64,000 nucleotides of DNA from a virus. Shown one piece after another: positions 15,739-49,554 of the stretch; position 1 is the stretch's first letter; every line of letters starts with the position of its first letter. The position numbers and the translations under genes were made by a program. The stretch lies in IMG/VR virus record IMGVR_UViG_3300017763_000007; one strand, given 5' to 3'. The notes under the pieces are model-generated. The model had not been told where the DNA came from, searched no databases, and saw only the letters and a program-made list of their open reading frames with translations.

Positions 15739-17145
15739 ATGTTCAATTCTGGATCCCTCCAGAAGAAGTGGGCACCTCTGCTAGAGGCCGAAGGACTTGA
15801 TTCAATCAAGGACAACCACCGCAGAGCTGTAACAGCCCAACTTCTCGAAAACCAAGAACGTTTTCTCCGTGAGGAGCGTGCATTCCTGAGCGAAGCACCC
15901 CCTACGGTCAACACAGATCCCGGCGGCGCAGGCGTTGCTGGTTTTAGTGGCGGCGCTGGTGCCGCTGGTCCTGTCGCAGGTTTCGACCCTGTGCTGATCA
16001 GCTTGATCCGTCGCTCCATGCCCAACCTGGTCGCTTATGACCTCGCTGGTGTTCAGCCGATGAACGGTCCTACTGGACTGATCTTCGCAATGCGTTCACG
16101 CTACGACAATCAGTCTGGCACAGAAGCATTCTTCAACGAGCCCGATTCGGCATTCTCCGCACAGAACTCTGCTGCCAGCTTGGCACAGGGTGACTACACC
16201 GGAGCAACTGATGGTGGCACTGCTGTTGGTTTCGGTACGACCGCCCAAGGTGGTAGCAACCCATCCATCCTCAACGGTGGTGCAGACAACGCTTACAGCA
16301 CTGGACAAGGTTTCAACACCCAAGCTTCTGAAGCACTGGGCGATGGTTCCTCGAACGACTTCCGTGAGATGGCGTTCAGCATCGAGAAAGTCTCGGTGAC
16401 CGCCAAATCACGTGCCCTGAAGGCCGAGTACAGCCTTGAGCTTGCTCAAGACTTGAAGGCAATTCACGGTTTGGATGCCGAAGCGGAACTCGCCAACATC
16501 CTCAGCACTGAAATCCTTGCTGAGATCAACCGCGAGATCATCCGTACGATCTACAAGTCCGCCGAAGCTGGTGCTCAAACAAACACTGCCACAACTGGCG
16601 TGTTCGACCTTGACACCGACAGCAACGGTCGTTGGATGGTTGAGAAGTTCAAAGGAATGATCTTCCAACTGGAGCGTGATGCTAACGCCATCGCACAAAG
16701 AACTCGTCGCGGGAAGGGTAACATCCTCCTTTGCTCCGCTGATGTTGCTTCTGCCCTGACCGCCGCTGGTCAACTGGACTACACCCCCGCCCTGTCATCC
16801 AACATGAATGTTGATGACACCGGCAACACCTTCGCTGGTGTGCTCAACGGTCGCTATCGCGTCTACATTGACCCGTTTGCTGCTAACCTGAGTGCTGATC
16901 AGTATTACGTGATGGGCTACAAGGGTTCTAACCCTTATGACGCCGGTCTGTTCTACTGCCCTTACGTGCCCCTGCAGATGGTTCGCGCCGTTGGTCAGGA
17001 CACCTTCCAGCCAAAAATCGGATTCAAGACTCGCTACGGCATGGTCGCGAACCCCTACGCCGAAGGCACCACACAGGGTCTCGGACGTATCACTGCTGGT
17101 TCCAACCGCTACTACCGTCGCGTCAAGGTCCAAAACCTCATGTGA
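15739..17145 (+). CDS. gp23: major capsid protein gp23
   Basis: FDPVLISLIRR, GVQPMNGPTGLIFAMR, FYCPYVPLQM, FQPKIGFKTRYG. Confidence 0.98.
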   Translation: MFNSGSLQKKWAPLLEAEGLDSIKDNHRRAVTAQLLENQERFLREERAFLSEAPPTVNTDPGGAGVAGFSGGAGAAGPVAGFDPVLISLIRRSMPNLVAYDLAGVQPMNGPTGLIFAMRSRYDNQSGTEAFFNEPDSAFSAQNSAASLAQGDYTGATDGGTAVGFGTTAQGGSNPSILNGGADNAYSTGQGFNTQASEALGDGSSNDFREMAFSIEKVSVTAKSRALKAEYSLELAQDLKAIHGLDAEAELANILSTEILAEINREIIRTIYKSAEAGAQTNTATTGVFDLDTDSNGRWMVEKFKGMIFQLERDANAIAQRTRRGKGNILLCSADVASALTAAGQLDYTPALSSNMNVDDTGNTFAGVLNGRYRVYIDPFAANLSADQYYVMGYKGSNPYDAGLFYCPYVPLQMVRAVGQDTFQPKIGFKTRYGMVANPYAEGTTQGLGRITAGSNRYYRRVKVQNLM

Positions 17146-17931: not shown

Positions 17932-18077
17932 AGCAGTTCTTGCTCTGGGTTGAGATTTTTTACAAATTGCACAGGGTCTTGCTCAGACTTGTGTACCCAA
18001 TGATAACGCATGCATTCAAACATGGGATCCCACATTGTAACACACGTGTAATCAGATTTTTTATTTTCAGTCGTCAC
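17928..18077 (-). CDS. small hypothetical protein (49 aa, MTTENKKSDYTCVTMWDP...)
   Basis: Translated by hand; GTG start downstream of a TATAAATA; TGA overlaps the next ATG. Confidence 0.6.
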   Translation of the reverse strand: MTTENKKSDYTCVTMWDPMFECMRYHWVHKSEQDPVQFVKNLNPEQELL

Positions 18078-18089
18078 GATTTTTGACTT

Positions 18090-18097
18090 TATTTATA
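18090..18097 (-). promoter_or_regulatory. late promoter (TATAAATA)
   Basis: Perfect consensus on the minus strand, 12 nt before the GTG start. Confidence 0.75.
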
Positions 18098-18161
18098 GTA
18101 ATGTAAAAAAGATAGAAATGTTAGTAAATAAAGACAAAGTTACCTAGATAGTATTAGGATT

Positions 18162-18241
18162 AGGAGGACCTATGAAATGAAACCCTCAACTATTTTATGT
18201 TTCTTACTATGAGTTCACCTTACACAATTTTATATGCATAA
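18162..18241 (+). other. SD plus chain of overlapping mini-ORFs (MK*, MKPSTILCFLL*, MSSPYTILYA*)
   Basis: AGGAGG 18162-18167; ORFs 18172-18180, 18177-18212 and 18209-18241, each overlapping the next start codon. Confidence 0.5.
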
Positions 18242-18413
18242 CATAATCTCTCGCAACATTTTATCCGAGTGGGGTAGATTAGAACGATCTGTAGAATCTT
18301 TAGAAGAAACAGACACACAGATAGAGAAAATCAACGACTACTTTGAATGTATTATTGAATGTGAGGACGGTGCGTCTGCCTGTAAACGAATATGTAAAGA
18401 GATCTTAGTATAG
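18234..18413 (+). CDS. small Cys-motif protein (59 aa, MHNIISRN...YFECIIECEDGASACKRICKEIL)
   Basis: Translated by hand; CxxxC-x6-CxxxC; followed by a terminator. Confidence 0.7.
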   Translation: MHNIISRNILSEWGRLERSVESLEETDTQIEKINDYFECIIECEDGASACKRICKEILV

Positions 18414-18427
18414 GCATCGACAACCTG

Positions 18428-18457
18428 AACCCCCTCTTGAGTTAGAGGGGGTTTTTT
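18428..18457 (+). terminator. rho-independent terminator
   Basis: AACCCCCTCT-TGAGTT-AGAGGGGGTT followed by TTTT. Confidence 0.85.
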
Positions 18458-18489
18458 GGTATAGTAAATAGGGTAACGTCATTGCAACC

Positions 18490-18690
18490 ATGAAAGACCA
18501 GAACGCTATTTTGTCTTCAGAAAGCAAACAGGTCAAATGGAACCGTGGATTAGACCTCTTTATTGAATCAGTTTTGAAACCGGATTCAACACTTAGGGAT
18601 TGTGCTCACAACCAGCAATGCTATAATGAACTAATGGATGTCAGGAAAGACGTTCTTGAATACCTGAAATCTAAACGTTGGCATGCCTAA
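18490..18690 (+). CDS. conserved cyanophage hypothetical protein
   Basis: Clean ORF; KWNRGLDLFIESV motif recalled from cyanophages. Confidence 0.65.
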   Translation: MKDQNAILSSESKQVKWNRGLDLFIESVLKPDSTLRDCAHNQQCYNELMDVRKDVLEYLKSKRWHA

Positions 18691-18871: not shown

Positions 18872-19450
18872 TTGGAAACCGGTGTTAGAGGTGCTACTCC
18901 TCCATATAAACTAAACGAACCTACGAACAGGAACTTCCTGAGTGTCGTTGGGTTCGATTTTATTTTGAATCGTTGCCCTAAGGTTAGTTTTTACTGTAAC
19001 CAGGCAAATATTCCAGACATTACTTTAGGAGTAGCACAACAGACAACCTATTTGAGAGACATTCCTGTCCCTGGAGACAAACTTCAGTATGGAGATCTGT
19101 CTCTTCAGTTTATGGTTGATGAAAACTGCGAAAATTATTTGCAGATCTATGACTGGATCACGGGACTGGGGTATCCAGAGTCCTTACAGCAGTATGATGA
19201 TCTAAAACGAAACAGCAGGTTCTATCCTACTGAAGATGCTCCATTCAATGAGCGTTCTGATGGAACTTTGATTGTCTTGAACAGTGATTATAACCCAGCG
19301 GTGAAAATCAAATTCAAGGAAATGTTCCCGATCAGACTGTCAGGCATACCTTTCAGTGCTATTGAGACAGAAGAACGTTACTTTACAGCATCAGTAACCT
19401 TCAAGTATACTATTTTTGATATGATTGATGTCCTTGGAAAGAAAGTCTAG
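18872..19450 (+). CDS. gp3: tail completion/sheath stabilizer gp3
   Basis: NRNFLSVVGFDF, PKVSFYCNQANIP, FMVDENCENY; TTG start is forced by an upstream in-frame TAG. Confidence 0.85.
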   Translation: METGVRGATPPYKLNEPTNRNFLSVVGFDFILNRCPKVSFYCNQANIPDITLGVAQQTTYLRDIPVPGDKLQYGDLSLQFMVDENCENYLQIYDWITGLGYPESLQQYDDLKRNSRFYPTEDAPFNERSDGTLIVLNSDYNPAVKIKFKEMFPIRLSGIPFSAIETEERYFTASVTFKYTIFDMIDVLGKKV

Positions 19451-19886
19451 TCCTCTTAGTCTCGAAAACATCCAAGAGATGTGGACTAATGATGCCAAAA
19501 TGAATCAGGATGAATTGGATACGGAGTCACTCAAGATTCCCCAATTACATGCCAAGTATTATGGACTATATAATACAATCCTACTGATGAGGAAACAAAA
19601 CGAACAAATTTACAGTTCGTTGTTGCTTCAAAGGAGAAATTTTTACACTGGTAAGGCAACTGCTGCTGTATATGAAGCAGAACCATTCCCTTACAAGATC
19701 AGAGATAAGGATGACCTCAAGTTATATCTTGAGTCTGACGAGAAGTTATCCAAAACGAGACTAAAAATTGAATACTTTGATTCAATGCTGAAATACTTGG
19801 AAGAAATTCTAAGGCAAGTAACGAATCGTACGTATCAAATCAAAAATGCCATCGAATGGCGGCCATTCTCTTCTGGTTATGGCTGA
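19428..19886 (+). CDS. uvsY: recombination mediator UvsY
   Basis: ESLKIPQLHAKYY, NRTYQIKNAIEW. Confidence 0.9.
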   Translation: MSLERKSSPLSLENIQEMWTNDAKMNQDELDTESLKIPQLHAKYYGLYNTILLMRKQNEQIYSSLLLQRRNFYTGKATAAVYEAEPFPYKIRDKDDLKLYLESDEKLSKTRLKIEYFDSMLKYLEEILRQVTNRTYQIKNAIEWRPFSSGYG

Positions 19887-30511: not shown

Positions 30512-30656
30512 AAACTTCTTTTGTGAAGTTGATCAAGATGGAATTTTGACTTTCCCTGAAGAACTCCTTGAGAAAACTGGTTGGAAAGAAGGAGACGTGT
30601 TAGAGTGGACTCCTAATGATGATGGGTCTTTTTCTTTGAGGAAACAGAATGCGTGA
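30498..30656 (+). CDS. small AbrB/MazE-like protein (52 aa)
   Basis: Translated by hand: GILTFPEELLEKTGWKEGDVLEW...RKQNA. Confidence 0.6.
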   Translation: MSQNENFFCEVDQDGILTFPEELLEKTGWKEGDVLEWTPNDDGSFSLRKQNA

Positions 30657-31593
30657 TGAATTCCTTTGGGTAGAAAAGTATCGCCCTAAAACAATTGATG
30701 ACTGCATCCTTCCTAAGTCAATAAAGACGACTTTTACGGAGTTTGTAAATAGTGGTGAGCTTCCTAATTTGTTGCTCTCGGGTCCTCCTGGAATAGGTAA
30801 GACGACAGTAGCAAAGGCGTTGTGCCTTGAACTTGGAGCTGACTACTATGTCATCAACGGATCAGATGAAGGACGGTTCCTTGACACGGTTCGTAACCAA
30901 GCAAAGAATTTTGCTTCAACTGTGTCTCTTACGTCTGAATCTAGGCACAAGGTCATCATCATCGATGAGGCAGATAATACTACACATGATGTACAACTCC
31001 TACTCCGAGCTAACATCGAGGCGTTCTACAACAATTGTAGGTTCATCTTTACGTGCAATTACAAGAACAAAATTATTGAACCTCTCCACAGCCGATGTGC
31101 GGTGGTCGATTTCGGAATTACAGGGAAAGACAAACAACTGATTGCTGCTGGGTTCTTCAAGAGGTTGACTCAGATTCTTGAGTTAGAGGGTGTTGAGTAT
31201 GAACCAAAAGTTGCAGTAGAACTTATCAAGAAACACTTCCCTGATTGGAGACGTGTATTGAATGAGTGTCAAAGATATGCAACTAGTGGTAAAATAGATA
31301 CAGGAGTCCTAGCAGACTTTAGTAATGTACAGGTCAATGAACTAGTTTCTTATATTAGTAAGAAGCAGTATCCTAATGTACGGAAGTGGATCGTTCAAAA
31401 TTTAGATAACGATCCTAATACTATCCTCAGAAAATTGTATGACTCAATCTATGAGCATATGAAACCAAAGTCTATCCCTGAGGCGGTACTAATTATTGCA
31501 AAATATCAGTACCAGTCTGCGTTTGCAGCAGATCAGGAGATCAATCTCCTAGCAGCAATGACTGAAATTATGGTCAACTGCGAATTCAAGTAA
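30649..31593 (+). CDS. gp44: clamp loader subunit gp44
   Basis: LWVEKYRP, GPPGIGKTT, IIDEAD, LHSRC, PDWRR. Confidence 0.96.
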   Translation: MRDEFLWVEKYRPKTIDDCILPKSIKTTFTEFVNSGELPNLLLSGPPGIGKTTVAKALCLELGADYYVINGSDEGRFLDTVRNQAKNFASTVSLTSESRHKVIIIDEADNTTHDVQLLLRANIEAFYNNCRFIFTCNYKNKIIEPLHSRCAVVDFGITGKDKQLIAAGFFKRLTQILELEGVEYEPKVAVELIKKHFPDWRRVLNECQRYATSGKIDTGVLADFSNVQVNELVSYISKKQYPNVRKWIVQNLDNDPNTILRKLYDSIYEHMKPKSIPEAVLIIAKYQYQSAFAADQEINLLAAMTEIMVNCEFK

Positions 31594-34629: not shown

Positions 34630-34773
34630 ATGGAAACACCGGCAGACTTGTGGCAAGACATGGCAACCCTCAACGCACTATATGAGGAGTTATGCTGGGA
34701 CCCTGAAGTAGTTCTAGAATTTATTCCTGACTACGAAAACGACTGTATTATTATTCGCAAACAGAATGCCTGA
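34630..34773 (+). CDS. small protein (47 aa), AbrB-like C-terminal half
   Basis: Translated by hand: LYEELCWDPEVVLEFIP...RKQNA. Confidence 0.6.
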   Translation: METPADLWQDMATLNALYEELCWDPEVVLEFIPDYENDCIIIRKQNA

Positions 34774-35149
34774 ATTGAAGGATTGGTTGAAGTCAATCAA
34801 CGAAACCAAGACTAACCTTATTGATGATGATCCTCAATTAGAATCGAAGTATCTTCCATACATTGTCAATCGATGTTTGTCTGGTCACATTGATTCGTTG
34901 ATGTATGCCAACGAGATGAATATAAATCACTGCCTTGATTATAAGTTACAATACGACTTTTTACTAAATACTCTGAGATCTAAGAAGAGATTCTCTCCTT
35001 GGGTCAGGAAAGATGAGCTAGTGAATCTCCAGATTGTCAAAAAATACTACGGTTATTCTGACGAAAAGGCGAAGCAAGTGCTCCCTCTTTTATCTAACGA
35101 ACAGTTAGACATTATTCGACAAAAACTTGAGACCGGAGGGTTGCAATGA
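34766..35149 (+). CDS. gp62: clamp loader subunit gp62
   Basis: ELKDWLKSIN, YLPYIVNRCLS, YYGYSDEKA. Confidence 0.93.
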   Translation: MPELKDWLKSINETKTNLIDDDPQLESKYLPYIVNRCLSGHIDSLMYANEMNINHCLDYKLQYDFLLNTLRSKKRFSPWVRKDELVNLQIVKKYYGYSDEKAKQVLPLLSNEQLDIIRQKLETGGLQ

Positions 35150-35583
35150 ATAGTGGAGAACCGATTTACGAATGGTCCCCTGCAAAGATGATTGAAGTGG
35201 TTCTGCAAGAACCAGATGATTTCCTAAAAGTCCGTGAGACACTGACAAGGATTGGAGTTGCATCACGCAAGGAAAAGAAACTTTATCAGTCTTGTCACAT
35301 CCTGCATAAGCAAGGAAGATATTTTATCGTTCACTTCAAAGAGTTGTTTGCTCTAGATGGAAAGAGAGCAAACTTGACTATCAATGATGTGCAACGTCGC
35401 AATCGTATTGTCAACCTATTAGTTGATTGGGGATTGGTCTTGATCTCTGAAGAGAATCTTGCAAATATTGTAGACGTTTCACCTTTGAATCAAATCAAAG
35501 TAATCTCTTTCCGTGAGAAAGGTGAGTGGTCACTAGAGACTAAGTACAATATTGGTAAAAAGAAAACCCAAGAGACTGAGTAG
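35146..35583 (+). CDS. regA: translational repressor RegA
   Basis: DDFLKVRETLTRIGVASR, LYQSCHILHKQG. Confidence 0.96.
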   Translation: MNSGEPIYEWSPAKMIEVVLQEPDDFLKVRETLTRIGVASRKEKKLYQSCHILHKQGRYFIVHFKELFALDGKRANLTINDVQRRNRIVNLLVDWGLVLISEENLANIVDVSPLNQIKVISFREKGEWSLETKYNIGKKKTQETE

Positions 35584-36846: not shown

Positions 36847-37112
36847 TCCAAATTTTAGTATTGAAGAATGATTTGGTTCTGATCTCACGAGTAGAAGAGA
36901 TTGGTACTGAATTGGGGGAACCCGACTGTAAACTCATCAAACCGTACAAGGTTGTCTTGCATGATGGTGGGTGTACTGATAACGTAACTTACGAATCATG
37001 GCCAGAGTTTACAGAGCAGAAGGAATTGATGATTCACTCTGATAGTATTCTGACTATAGTTGAACCTAACAAGCATCAACTTGAAAAATACCAGCAGGTC
37101 ACTGCTGAATGA
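36843..37112 (+). CDS. conserved hypothetical protein upstream of the DNA polymerase
   Basis: GEPDCKLIKPY; synteny. Confidence 0.65.
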   Translation: MIQILVLKNDLVLISRVEEIGTELGEPDCKLIKPYKVVLHDGGCTDNVTYESWPEFTEQKELMIHSDSILTIVEPNKHQLEKYQQVTAE

Positions 37113-39604
37113 GATTTTACACTAACGTGCAGATGGTCGGCAACGACTTTCTGGTTCGTGGGTATGAAAACGGTAGTCCTATCAAAACCAGAGAGAGCTA
37201 TCAACCTACATTATTTGTTCCATCACGTAAGAAAACTCATTTCAAAACACTGGACGGCAAGTATGTCCAGAGCATTCAACCAGGTACAGTCAGGGATTGC
37301 CGTGAGTTCTACAAAACTCATGGTGACGTAGATAACTTCGATATCTACGGTAATAATCGGTACGTATACCAGTACATATCTGATAAGTATCCAGAAGACG
37401 AGATCAAGTTCGACATCAAAAAGATGAAGGTGGTCACCATCGACATCGAGGTGTCTGCTGAGAAAGGATTTCCTACAGTAGAGAACTGTGATGAGGAAAT
37501 GCTTTGCATTACCCTACAGAATTACGCCACTAAGCGTATTCTTACCTTTGGCGTTGGTGCATATAATAATACTGACCCTATGGTCAAGTATGTTCAGTGT
37601 AATGATGAGTATGATTTACTCCAACACTTCATTACATACTGGCAAAGTGACACTCCTGATGTGGTAACCGGGTGGAACTGTCAGTTGTACGACATTCCGT
37701 ACCTATGTAAGCGCATCACACGTGTGCTTGGTGAAAAGGTAATGAAAAAAATGTCTCCATGGGGTCTAGTGACTGCCGAAGAGATGTTTATCATGCATCG
37801 TGAGCGTCTTGTTTATGACATTGCAGGTGTTACAGTCCTTGATTACATGGACTTGTACAAAAAATTCACCTATAAGGCACAAGAAAGTTATAGATTAGAC
37901 TACATCGGTGAAGTTGAACTTGGTGAGAAGAAATTAGACCACTCTGAGTACGATAGTTTCAAGGATTTTTATGCTAACGACTGGCAAAAGTTTGTCAGGT
38001 ACAACATCCAAGACGTGAGATTGGTTGACTCCCTTGAGGAGAAGATGAAACTGATTGAACTTGCCATCACTATGGCATATGACGCCAAGGTGAACTTCAC
38101 AGACGTGTTCTATCAGGTACGGATGTGGGACATGATCATCTATAACGACCTGAAGAAAAAAGGTATCGTTATCCCACCTAAAGCAGATGAAGTAAAGAAC
38201 GAAAAGTATGCTGGTGCTTATGTAAAAGAACCAAAACCTGGCATTTATGAGTGGGTTGTGAGTTTTGACTTGAACTCATTGTATCCACACCTCATCATGC
38301 AGTACAACATCTCTCCTGAGACGCTGTTAGATGAGAGATATCCCTCTGTCAGCGTCGATAAACTACTGAATAAGGAAGTAGACCTGTCGGGTCTTGAGGA
38401 CGTTACTGTGTGCCCTAATGGCGCTATGTTTACCACTAAAACACGTGGGTTCCTGCCCAAATTGATGGACAGGATCTACAGTGAACGGGTGGTCTTCAAG
38501 AAAAAGATGATCCAAGCAAAGAAGGAGTATGAAAAAACTCCTACAAAGGCGTTGGAGAAGGAGATTGCCAGGTGTAATAACATTCAGATGGCAAAGAAGA
38601 TCCAACTAAACTCTGCTTATGGTGCCATTGGCAACAACTATTTCCGGTATTACAAACTAGAGAACGCTGAGGCGATTACTCTGGGGGGTCAGTTCAGCAT
38701 CCGTTGGATTGAAAACCGGATGAATCTATATCTAAACAAATTACTCAACACCAAAGACCATGACTACGTTATTGCTTCCGATACTGACAGTATCTATTTG
38801 TGTCTTGATCTACTTGTCAATAGTGTATTTGATGTACAAAAAGTTTCTAAAGAGAGGATTGTTGATTTCATCAACGACGCCTGCGAGAAGCGATTTGAAC
38901 CATACATATCGAAATGCTACGAGGAACTCTCGTCCTATGTGAATGCTTATGATCAGAAGATGTTCATGAAGAGAGAAACTATCGCTGAACGTGGCATTTG
39001 GACTGCTAAGAAGCGATATATCCTCAACGCATGGGACATTGAAGGTGTGAGGTTTGCTGAACCAAAACTCAAGATCATGGGTATCGAAGCAGTCAAGTCA
39101 TCTACACCTGCACCTTGCCGTCAGATGATCAAAGATGCTTTGAAGATCATCATGAGCAAAACTGAGGATGATGTGATCGATTACATCGATAAGTCACGTC
39201 GTGAGTTTAGAAAAATGGATCCTGCTGCGGTTGCATTCCCCCGATCATGCAATAATCTGGACAAATATAAGAGTACATTGTCCATTTATGGGAAGGGTAC
39301 ACCTATTCATGTCCGAGGTTCATTGCTTTATAACCACTACCTGAAGAAGCATAAGTTAGACTCTAAATATAATGCTATCAACAATGGCGACAAGGTAAAG
39401 TTCTGCTATTTGACCAAACCCAACCCAACTCAAGAGAATGTGATCTCTTTTGTGGGCGATTTTCCAAAAGAACTGGGTCTAGCAAACTATGTTGACTACA
39501 CGTTGATGTTTGATAAATCATTTGTTGAACCGCTCAAGGCGGTTCTGGATGCTATCGGCTGGTCAGTTGAGAAAACCGCAACGCTGGATCTTTTCTTTGT
39601 CTGA
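37109..39604 (+). CDS. gp43: DNA polymerase gp43 (family B)
   Basis: DIEV exonuclease motif, SFDLNSLYP, KIQLNSAYG, SDTDS, KKRY; no intein or intron. Confidence 0.98.
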   Translation: MRFYTNVQMVGNDFLVRGYENGSPIKTRESYQPTLFVPSRKKTHFKTLDGKYVQSIQPGTVRDCREFYKTHGDVDNFDIYGNNRYVYQYISDKYPEDEIKFDIKKMKVVTIDIEVSAEKGFPTVENCDEEMLCITLQNYATKRILTFGVGAYNNTDPMVKYVQCNDEYDLLQHFITYWQSDTPDVVTGWNCQLYDIPYLCKRITRVLGEKVMKKMSPWGLVTAEEMFIMHRERLVYDIAGVTVLDYMDLYKKFTYKAQESYRLDYIGEVELGEKKLDHSEYDSFKDFYANDWQKFVRYNIQDVRLVDSLEEKMKLIELAITMAYDAKVNFTDVFYQVRMWDMIIYNDLKKKGIVIPPKADEVKNEKYAGAYVKEPKPGIYEWVVSFDLNSLYPHLIMQYNISPETLLDERYPSVSVDKLLNKEVDLSGLEDVTVCPNGAMFTTKTRGFLPKLMDRIYSERVVFKKKMIQAKKEYEKTPTKALEKEIARCNNIQMAKKIQLNSAYGAIGNNYFRYYKLENAEAITLGGQFSIRWIENRMNLYLNKLLNTKDHDYVIASDTDSIYLCLDLLVNSVFDVQKVSKERIVDFINDACEKRFEPYISKCYEELSSYVNAYDQKMFMKRETIAERGIWTAKKRYILNAWDIEGVRFAEPKLKIMGIEAVKSSTPAPCRQMIKDALKIIMSKTEDDVIDYIDKSRREFRKMDPAAVAFPRSCNNLDKYKSTLSIYGKGTPIHVRGSLLYNHYLKKHKLDSKYNAINNGDKVKFCYLTKPNPTQENVISFVGDFPKELGLANYVDYTLMFDKSFVEPLKAVLDAIGWSVEKTATLDLFFV

Positions 39605-49179: not shown

Positions 49180-49554
49180 ATGCGATTTGATGAACTAAAT
49201 GATGATAACTATTTGCTCTTCGCTATAAAATATTACGAAAATCCTCTTGCGGCAACAATGGAGGATTTTCAAAATGATATGAGGCGGTTCAAATATATCA
49301 AAAGATTATTCAAAAAATATTTGAATCAGGGAGGTGAACTAAAGTATCATCTGATCCTGAATCATCTCATTATTTGTTTCAATATCTTCGATGAAGGCGC
49401 TGTTCCTTTGTTATTCTACAAAATAGATCGTGAGTATTGGTCAATGCTCAAAACGTTTCTTATATTTTTGAATAGAATTCCAGAGTACCCAAAATCTGGA
49501 CTAGATGATCTAGAGATTGATGATGAAGTATACTCTATACTAAATTCGATCTGA
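49180..49554 (+). CDS. conserved T4-like hypothetical protein
   Basis: FAIKYYENP, RFKYIKRL, LILNHLII. Confidence 0.75.
   Translation: MRFDELNDDNYLLFAIKYYENPLAATMEDFQNDMRRFKYIKRLFKKYLNQGGELKYHLILNHLIICFNIFDEGAVPLLFYKIDREYWSMLKTFLIFLNRIPEYPKSGLDDLEIDDEVYSILNSI

Follow-up and report, generated by a model that had tools for sequence, protein, structure and literature searches.

A Shine-Dalgarno (SD) sequence, an ATG, no or one sense codon and a stop form a minimal open reading frame (ORF) that is conserved in the leader of a small four-cysteine protein gene of cyanophages. As judged from the aligned leaders, this first element (SD, ATG, zero or one codon, and stop) is the only part of the leader under selection. 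We consider it moderately likely that this conserved SD-led mini-ORF, lying on an unstructured AU-rich leader, holds a ribosome and acts in cis.

The four-cysteine gene and its cassette

The analyzed DNA, referred to here as the window, is a stretch of 64,000 nucleotides from the IMG/VR virus record IMGVR_UViG_3300017763_000007. Its source virus is a T4-like cyanomyovirus, and its closest DNA and protein matches are Synechococcus and Prochlorococcus myoviruses. The window encodes, among others, the major capsid protein (15739-17145), a gp19-like tail tube protein and UvsY (18872-19886), a putative helicase-like ORF (from 19846), RegA (35146-35583; PF01818, E 1e-44) and a family-B DNA polymerase (37109-39604). 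On the minus strand, a 147-amino-acid (aa) ORF at 17192-17635 matches four PHROG families along its length (phrog_4923, 2067/15097 and 618) and looks like small cyanophage modules that have been fused. The starts of two clamp-loader genes (30640-30660 and 34755-34775) have AAACAGAATGCNTGA in common across the initiation codon; given that RegA is encoded just downstream, AAACAGAATGCNTGA could be the RegA operator of this phage.

The gene in question (18234-18413, plus strand) encodes a 59-aa protein that belongs to phrog_665 (E 7.8e-24), annotated in PHROGs as function unknown, and that has the cysteine pattern C39-x3-C43-x6-C50-x3-C54. A tblastn search retrieved full-length homologues from 356 phage records, all of them from cyanophages or marine phages, and IMG/VR holds more than 570 stretches related to the gene. 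In an alignment of 59 distinct proteins, the invariant residues were M1, H2, N3, S6, W13, N34, D35, Y36, C39, I41, C43, C50, C54 and L58, which include all four cysteines and the N-terminus MHN..S. Conservation of the protein begins exactly at Met1 (M1-H2-N3), showing that the annotated ATG is the true start. The AlphaFold2 model, calculated with the 59-sequence alignment, is a helical hairpin (pLDDT 88; helices 7-42 and 48-58), where C39 and C43 are predicted to end helix 1 and C50 and C54 to lie in helix 2, with both CX3C motifs at the hairpin end. A metal or disulfide site made of the four cysteines is plausible on the basis of this model, with which the redox- or metal-binding role suggested in the initial annotation would be compatible. 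The cyanophage protein might be related to the twin CX3C helical-hairpin (small-Tim-like) proteins, which are defined by two CX3C motifs on two antiparallel helices; the spacing between its motifs is only 6-7 residues, and neither a Pfam family above cut-off nor a PDB fold match at E <= 0.001 (Foldseek) was found for it. In the ESM Atlas, only viral hypothetical clusters match the protein.

The neighbor upstream of the gene is divergent. A perfect TATAAATA on the minus strand (18090-18097) constitutes a T4-type late promoter directed at the divergent small genes (phrog_1093 and phrog_1134), ~13 nt from their first possible start at 18077. On the plus strand, direct reading and the aligned homologous leaders point to a candidate promoter region at 18131-18160, composed of a -35-like AAGACA (18131-18136), a degenerate late-promoter-like CTAGATA (18144-18150) and a -10-like TAGGAT (18155-18160). 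The relatives have, at the same position, a late-type motif ((N)ATAAATA, CTATATA or CTAGATA), 4-5 nt and TAGAAT; many also have a TTGACA-like hexamer, located 17-19 nt before TAGAAT. A consensus promoter scan did not call the site at 18131-18160, of which 8 out of 12 positions match. Overlapping early and late promoters, with the late motif NATAAATA, have been described for cyanomyoviruses (PMC2984593). On the other side, an intrinsic terminator (18427-18460, plus strand; hairpin 18427-18454) with an 11-bp stem, 6 GC pairs, a 6-nt loop and a T-run closes the monocistronic cassette. Both the divergent upstream side and the strong downstream terminator that the initial annotation had reported are present. 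The terminator hairpin is overlapped by a sigma-70-like promoter match at 18437-18465 (TTGAGT, 17 nt, TATAGT, with TG), which lies directly 5' of the next small gene (18490-18690, phrog_495).

The location of the gene differs by phage, with psbA as its neighbor in P-TIM40 and positions at 50 kb in P-SSM2 and near the record start in ACG-2014d, yet a promoter region and a terminator of its own always accompany it, and the SD-led module moves with the gene to these differing positions (P-TIM40 and P-SSM2). The unit is a mobile monocistronic cassette of promoter, leader, gene and terminator. When five cyanophage genomes were searched for the pattern, the SD-led minigene module turned up at the four-cysteine gene only, and a generic 5' module common to other genes was rejected on this basis.

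The first element of the leader and its conservation

In the window, the SD sequence AGGAGG (SD1; 18162-18167, plus strand) is located 4 nt before the first ATG (ATG1) of the two-codon minigene ATG AAA TGA (18172-18180, plus strand). This minigene, which is the conserved element, ends 53 nt before the main ATG (18234), and the main ATG has no SD within the preceding 15 nt. Between the two lie a second mini-ORF of 11 codons (MKPSTILCFLL*; 18177-18212, plus strand), which is lineage-specific and has an ATGA overlap with the minigene stop, and a third of 10 codons (MSSPYTILYA*; 18209-18241, plus strand; alternative start at 18197), which has an ATGA overlap with the second. The initial annotation had described precisely this order, i.e., an SD before ATG-AAA-TGA and a chain of ATGA overlaps leading into an SD-less 59-aa ORF, and all of these parts can be read in the window except for the last junction, which is not an ATGA but the 8-nt overlap ATGCATAA between the third mini-ORF and the main start. 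A single SD-led minimal ORF is unremarkable by itself, since the whole window contains 25 instances of an SD followed by ATG, at most one codon and a stop, compared with 18.8 +/- 5.2 in shuffled sequences. The only other strong match to the pattern in the window, at 49260, falls within an ORF.

The evidence for the element comes from the homologous leaders, for which 131 loci were reduced to 83 distinct upstream regions and then to 45 clusters at 75% leader identity. In the common layout, TAGAAT is directly followed by a purine-rich SD, 4-8 nt, ATG, no or one sense codon and a stop. Past this stop, the homologues have an A-rich tract, then a pyrimidine-rich tract and then an AU box, and in most lineages a second SD (SD2, GGAGGT) is found at the main start. 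The upstream SD and ATG are present in 42 of the 45 cluster representatives, with the remaining three having no leader. Grouped by form, the clusters comprise 21 with a two-codon ORF, 11 with a start codon directly followed by a stop (start-stop), 10 with a longer upstream ORF (uORF) and the 3 without a leader, so that an SD with ATG, at most one sense codon and a stop is found in 32/45. The 11 start-stop lineages read ATGTAA, ATGTGA or ATGTAG, where the window instead has one sense codon, AAA; in P-SSM2, ATG ACC TGA occupies the same position as the minigene of the window, and S-RIM12 and Syn33 are further phages with the minigene. Across the family, the first element is positioned 42-65 nt upstream of the main ATG.

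When the leaders were aligned with MAFFT, ATG1 was identical in 62/62 sequences, against a mean column identity of 49%; the positions flanking ATG1 are 33-45% conserved, with 33% for the three just before it. A purine-rich (G) peak is located at -11 to -6 from ATG1 in the 42 cluster representatives. The sense codon of the minigene takes 13 forms, and the stop is TGA in 18 cases, TAA in 12 and TAG in 2. Compared with dinucleotide shuffles of each leader, an upstream ATG with a strict SD occurs in 32/45 clusters (6.1 expected), and a strict-SD minigene of at most 2 codons in 23/45 (1.16 expected), although these statistics overstate independence, because the leader clusters are related by descent. 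An invariant ATG, a free sense codon, interchangeable stops and an SD-ATG distance of ~4-8 nt are the pattern expected from translational selection. This indicates selection for ribosome initiation at ATG1, mostly with immediate termination. The initial annotation had suggested looking for SD + ATGAAATGA upstream of homologues, and the SD and the minimal ORF are indeed kept family-wide around the invariant ATG1; the identities of the sense codon and of the stop vary freely, so the exact ATGAAATGA sequence is not fixed.

On the protein tree, the two-codon form appears in every major clade, the start-stops make up three clades, and each of the ten long forms stands alone at a scattered position. 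The start-stop form arose at least 3 times. The minimal ORF looks ancestral, and the long uORFs look like repeated losses of the stop; examples of the long form are P-SSM4, with a 9-codon uORF, and P-TIM40. Given that long uORFs cross the main start in 10/45 clusters and that 3/45 have no leader, immediate termination is favored but not obligatory, and the element is not essential. A further exception is found in IMGVR_UViG_2974637922_000001 (560-780), where the main ORF follows directly, in frame, on the promoter-proximal SD (GAGGAG) and ATG. The fused product reads MLS-HNLISHNQL..., the ~50-nt leader and the separate main start are gone, and no start of the conserved protein is visible other than this SD and ATG.

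The freedom of the sense codon bears on another property that the initial annotation had named for two-codon minigenes, the sequestration of tRNA. Phage lambda bar is an SD-led two-codon minigene whose toxicity in trans is tied to one codon and its tRNA. The cyanophage element resembles it in being a phage-borne, SD-led two-codon ORF, which in one lineage even reads ATG ATA TGA, but 13 different sense codons occur in it and 11 lineages lack one altogether; with the codon unconstrained or missing, no particular tRNA can be the target. It is therefore highly improbable that the minigene works in trans by trapping tRNA as peptidyl-tRNA, and tRNA sequestration is unlikely to be the conserved function.

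The AU box, TTACTATGAGT in the window (18203-18213, plus strand), contains two invariant columns (A and T) in the leader alignment. Its family consensus is yTTTATTATG, often TTGTTATG, located 23-34 nt before the main ATG (window and L006-L127). About two-thirds of the lineages have an ATG in the box, the frame of which relative to the main ORF is not fixed. No tested model explains the conservation of the AU box; its role might be that of an RNase E site, of an enhancer bound by S1 or of a site for protein binding. A role as the -10 element of an internal promoter, with ATG1/TGAAAC as the -35, was ruled out, as the spacing ranges from ~11 to 26 nt.

The overlap chain and RNA structure

The chain of overlaps in the window had led the initial annotation to a model in which ribosomes loaded at SD1 are passed, via three stop/start overlaps, to the SD-less main start, making the leader translation-sensing. 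Every junction in the window does overlap (ATGA, ATGA and ATGCATAA), an SD is missing at the main start, and L027 and L028 share the first two junctions. The complete chain, however, is confined to the window and two other leaders (L001 and L002), which form a single clade of 93% identity, so that the ATGA relay is not conserved upstream of the homologues. The window belongs to a well-supported clade (98/87) where the main start lacks an SD throughout, in contrast to most lineages, and even among the nearest relatives in L027-L031 the chain breaks at the last step. The terminal TAA needs CAT for His2, and in L027-L029, where the codon is CAC, the uORF continues past the main start; in L030 and L031 the frame differs. 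The last junction is decided only by the choice between CAT and CAC for His2.

Chance accounts well for the numbers: among the 18 leader sequences without SD2 that were tested, 3 chains were found, all in the clade of the window, versus 2.5 expected, and dinucleotide shuffles of the window leader give a full chain from ATG1 to the main ATG in 10-12% of cases. The A preceding TGA, on which the ATGA overlap is based, occurs at about the frequency expected by chance. Moreover, two lineages of the same SD-less clade (L004/L045 and L036) have lost the whole leader but kept an intact conserved gene, showing that the main ORF can be expressed without SD2, minigene or relay and that the leader element is modulatory rather than essential. 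Taken as a selected mechanism, the relay is distinctly improbable. The first codons of the second mini-ORF are homologous, at the nucleotide level, to the starts of the long uORFs of other lineages (ATGAACCC...). By the comparison of these leaders, it is the AT-richness of the leader, and not selection for a relay, that gave rise to the second and third mini-ORFs of the window.

A structured RNA leader, i.e., a riboswitch, a thermometer or an SD-sequestering hairpin, is very improbable as well. In its favor, the minigene is often followed by a tract rich in pyrimidines, which includes CTCC or CCTC in some lineages. This tract shows no excess complementarity to either SD over shuffled tracts (mean z = -0.06 for SD2 and -0.08 for SD1). 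RNAalifold predicted 0 consensus pairs for the aligned leaders, and the leader of the window folds at -11.9 kcal/mol, less stable than its shuffles (z = +0.83). No Rfam family reached the gathering threshold in the window, and a cut-off of E <= 10 around the locus yielded nothing but noise. With no fold, no pairs and no SD masking, the leader is best described as unstructured AU-rich RNA, where the selected signal is translational.

A bypass of the type known from T4 gene 60, from the minigene to the main ORF, was also considered and rejected, as there is neither a nascent peptide nor a pair of matched take-off and landing codons. It is also contradicted by the conserved Met of the main ORF itself and, usually, by its own SD.

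Possible action in cis and relation to known leader mini-ORFs

In the mechanism that we favor, the conserved mini-ORF acting in cis, a strong SD at optimal spacing would recruit a ribosome to an AUG located within ~5-20 nt of the 5' end of the mRNA. The ribosome would dwell at the minimal ORF, initiation and termination being slow steps, and would then depart without traversing the leader. Most likely, the bound ribosome would be a roadblock to RNase E/J, protecting the 5' end and the AU-rich leader against 5'-end-dependent attack; possibly, it would also raise the local supply of ribosomes for the main start ~50 nt downstream. RNase E moves along single-stranded RNA starting at the 5' end, and ribosomes on uORFs hinder it to a degree set by SD strength and persistence (PMC9943677); 5'-proximal ribosome binding stabilizes mRNAs in Firmicutes (PMC3997798). 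The cyanophage leader has all sequence attributes of the class of leader mini-ORFs. It counts against this mechanism that, if transcription begins ~7 nt past the TAGGAT/TAGAAT hexamer, SD1 would be partly outside the mRNA. The effect of the mini-ORF may be either positive or negative.

The closest precedent is the two-codon minigene AUG AAA UAG of LEE1 in enterohemorrhagic Escherichia coli (EHEC; Islam et al. 2012, PMC3262186), an SD-led ORF in a 5' leader that encodes the same Met-Lys dipeptide as the minigene of the window. It acts in cis, its effect varying with the stop and with how far away the main start lies, and it is needed for optimal ler expression in a position-dependent manner, turning inhibitory once moved to 29 nt from the start (PMC3262186). 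The LEE1 minigene is, however, located 124 nt upstream in a bacterial leader of ~170 nt and not at its extreme 5' end, compared with ~50 nt in the window, and its function was established by mutagenesis, whereas the cyanophage element is known here from evolutionary conservation alone. The two-codon mini-ORF of axe-txe also acts positively in cis on downstream expression, and so does the six-codon mini-ORF of LEE4, which blocks RNase E on an AU-rich leader (PMC8708949); LEE4 and axe-txe share with the cyanophage element a strong ribosome binding site (RBS) on an AU-rich unstructured leader, and the occupying ribosome shields the mRNA from RNase E and lifts downstream expression (Lodato et al. 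2012, as described in PMC8708949; Kedzierska and Potrykus 2021). SD binding alone suffices in LEE4, whereas the ATG and mostly the stop are conserved as well in the cyanophage leader; the hosts also differ, being enterobacteria for LEE4 and axe-txe and cyanobacteria for the phage. Similarly, the 5' stabilizers of Firmicutes (STAB-SD, the ermC/ermA leaders and hbs; PMC3997798) have a 5'-proximal RBS that stabilizes a long downstream mRNA, but STAB-SD needs no start codon and these systems counter RNase J1 or RNase Y, in contrast to a cyanophage leader that conserves start and stop.

The form found in 11/45 lineages, an SD-like sequence with AUG and an immediate stop, corresponds to the start-stops that Meydan et al. 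detected in E. coli with retapamulin Ribo-seq (bioRxiv 10.1101/520783), which can encode no product and are presumed to be regulatory. The 14 E. coli start-stops lie inside genes, out of frame, and had a small negative effect (bioRxiv 10.1101/520783), whereas the cyanophage element belongs to a 5' leader and has been kept throughout a virus family, with a two-codon form in the window. The initial annotation had stated that no description of such an arrangement was known, which is too strong, since leader minigenes acting in cis have been described for LEE1 (PMC3262186) as well as for axe-txe and LEE4 (PMC8708949). Going by its sequence features, the cyanophage element is best filed as a phage-borne and unusually well-conserved addition to this known class of leader mini-ORFs.

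Two other regulatory readings have to be weighed against a ribosome held at the mini-ORF. One is that a ribosome sink or attenuator, formed by the upstream RBS, keeps down the level of a small protein harmful in excess, as would fit the start-stop inside yecJ, which cuts expression of its host gene by 16% and represses more when the ORF is lengthened (bioRxiv 10.1101/520783), the inhibitory effect of the LEE1 minigene at short spacing, and the 10 lineages with long uORFs crossing the main start. We nevertheless find a sink rather improbable, as 33-56 nt separate the stop from the main ATG, more than steric occlusion would allow, the search for an SD-masking structure was negative, and bacterial ribosomes initiate internally regardless of upstream events. 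The other is that the minigene RBS, the AU box or both serve as an operator for the translational repressor RegA, giving temporal control of the cassette. RegA is encoded in the window and is a core cyanomyovirus gene (PMC2984593); RegA sites in T4 are unstructured, A+U rich and contain an AUG, with a SELEX consensus that ends in AUGUAA (PMC3014915), and the AU box reads UUGUUAUG in several lineages. The leaders, however, matched the T4 SELEX core at 7.6/11 at best, against 7.1 in shuffles, although the specificity of the cyanophage protein may differ, and neither site overlaps the main RBS, where T4 RegA acts. An operator role is conceivable but unlikely.

Beyond the proposed action in cis, the family-wide selected minimal ORF might also be a sensor of the capacity for translation initiation and termination, possibly together with RegA, that sets mRNA lifetime and timing. 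We consider this unlikely, but if true, the mRNA of a small host-targeting protein would be timed during infection, and no natural start-stop control element would have been defined in a phage before it; hundreds of natural variants would be available. Start-stops and two-codon minigenes recur in ribosome-profiling data, and few of them come with functional evidence. The cyanophage family resembles a natural mutagenesis series: the start never changes, the sense codon varies freely or is deleted, and one stop can replace another; the defined exceptions are lineages with long uORFs, without a leader or with the upstream start fused directly to the main ORF. This series is unusually clean comparative evidence that the loading of a ribosome followed by its immediate release is itself the selected property.

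The comparison also draws attention to a micro-protein that is widespread in cyanophages but often goes without an annotation or carries one in the wrong frame. ACG-2014b, S-CAM8 and P-SSM2 are among many records without any annotation for the four-cysteine gene. In P-TIM40 (KP211958.1), the annotated coding sequence PTIM40_223 (39 aa; L101:531-650) corresponds to the long uORF of the leader, in a frame other than that of the gene, and reads across the true start of the unannotated four-cysteine gene (MKNLLSYNQL...; L101:601-756).
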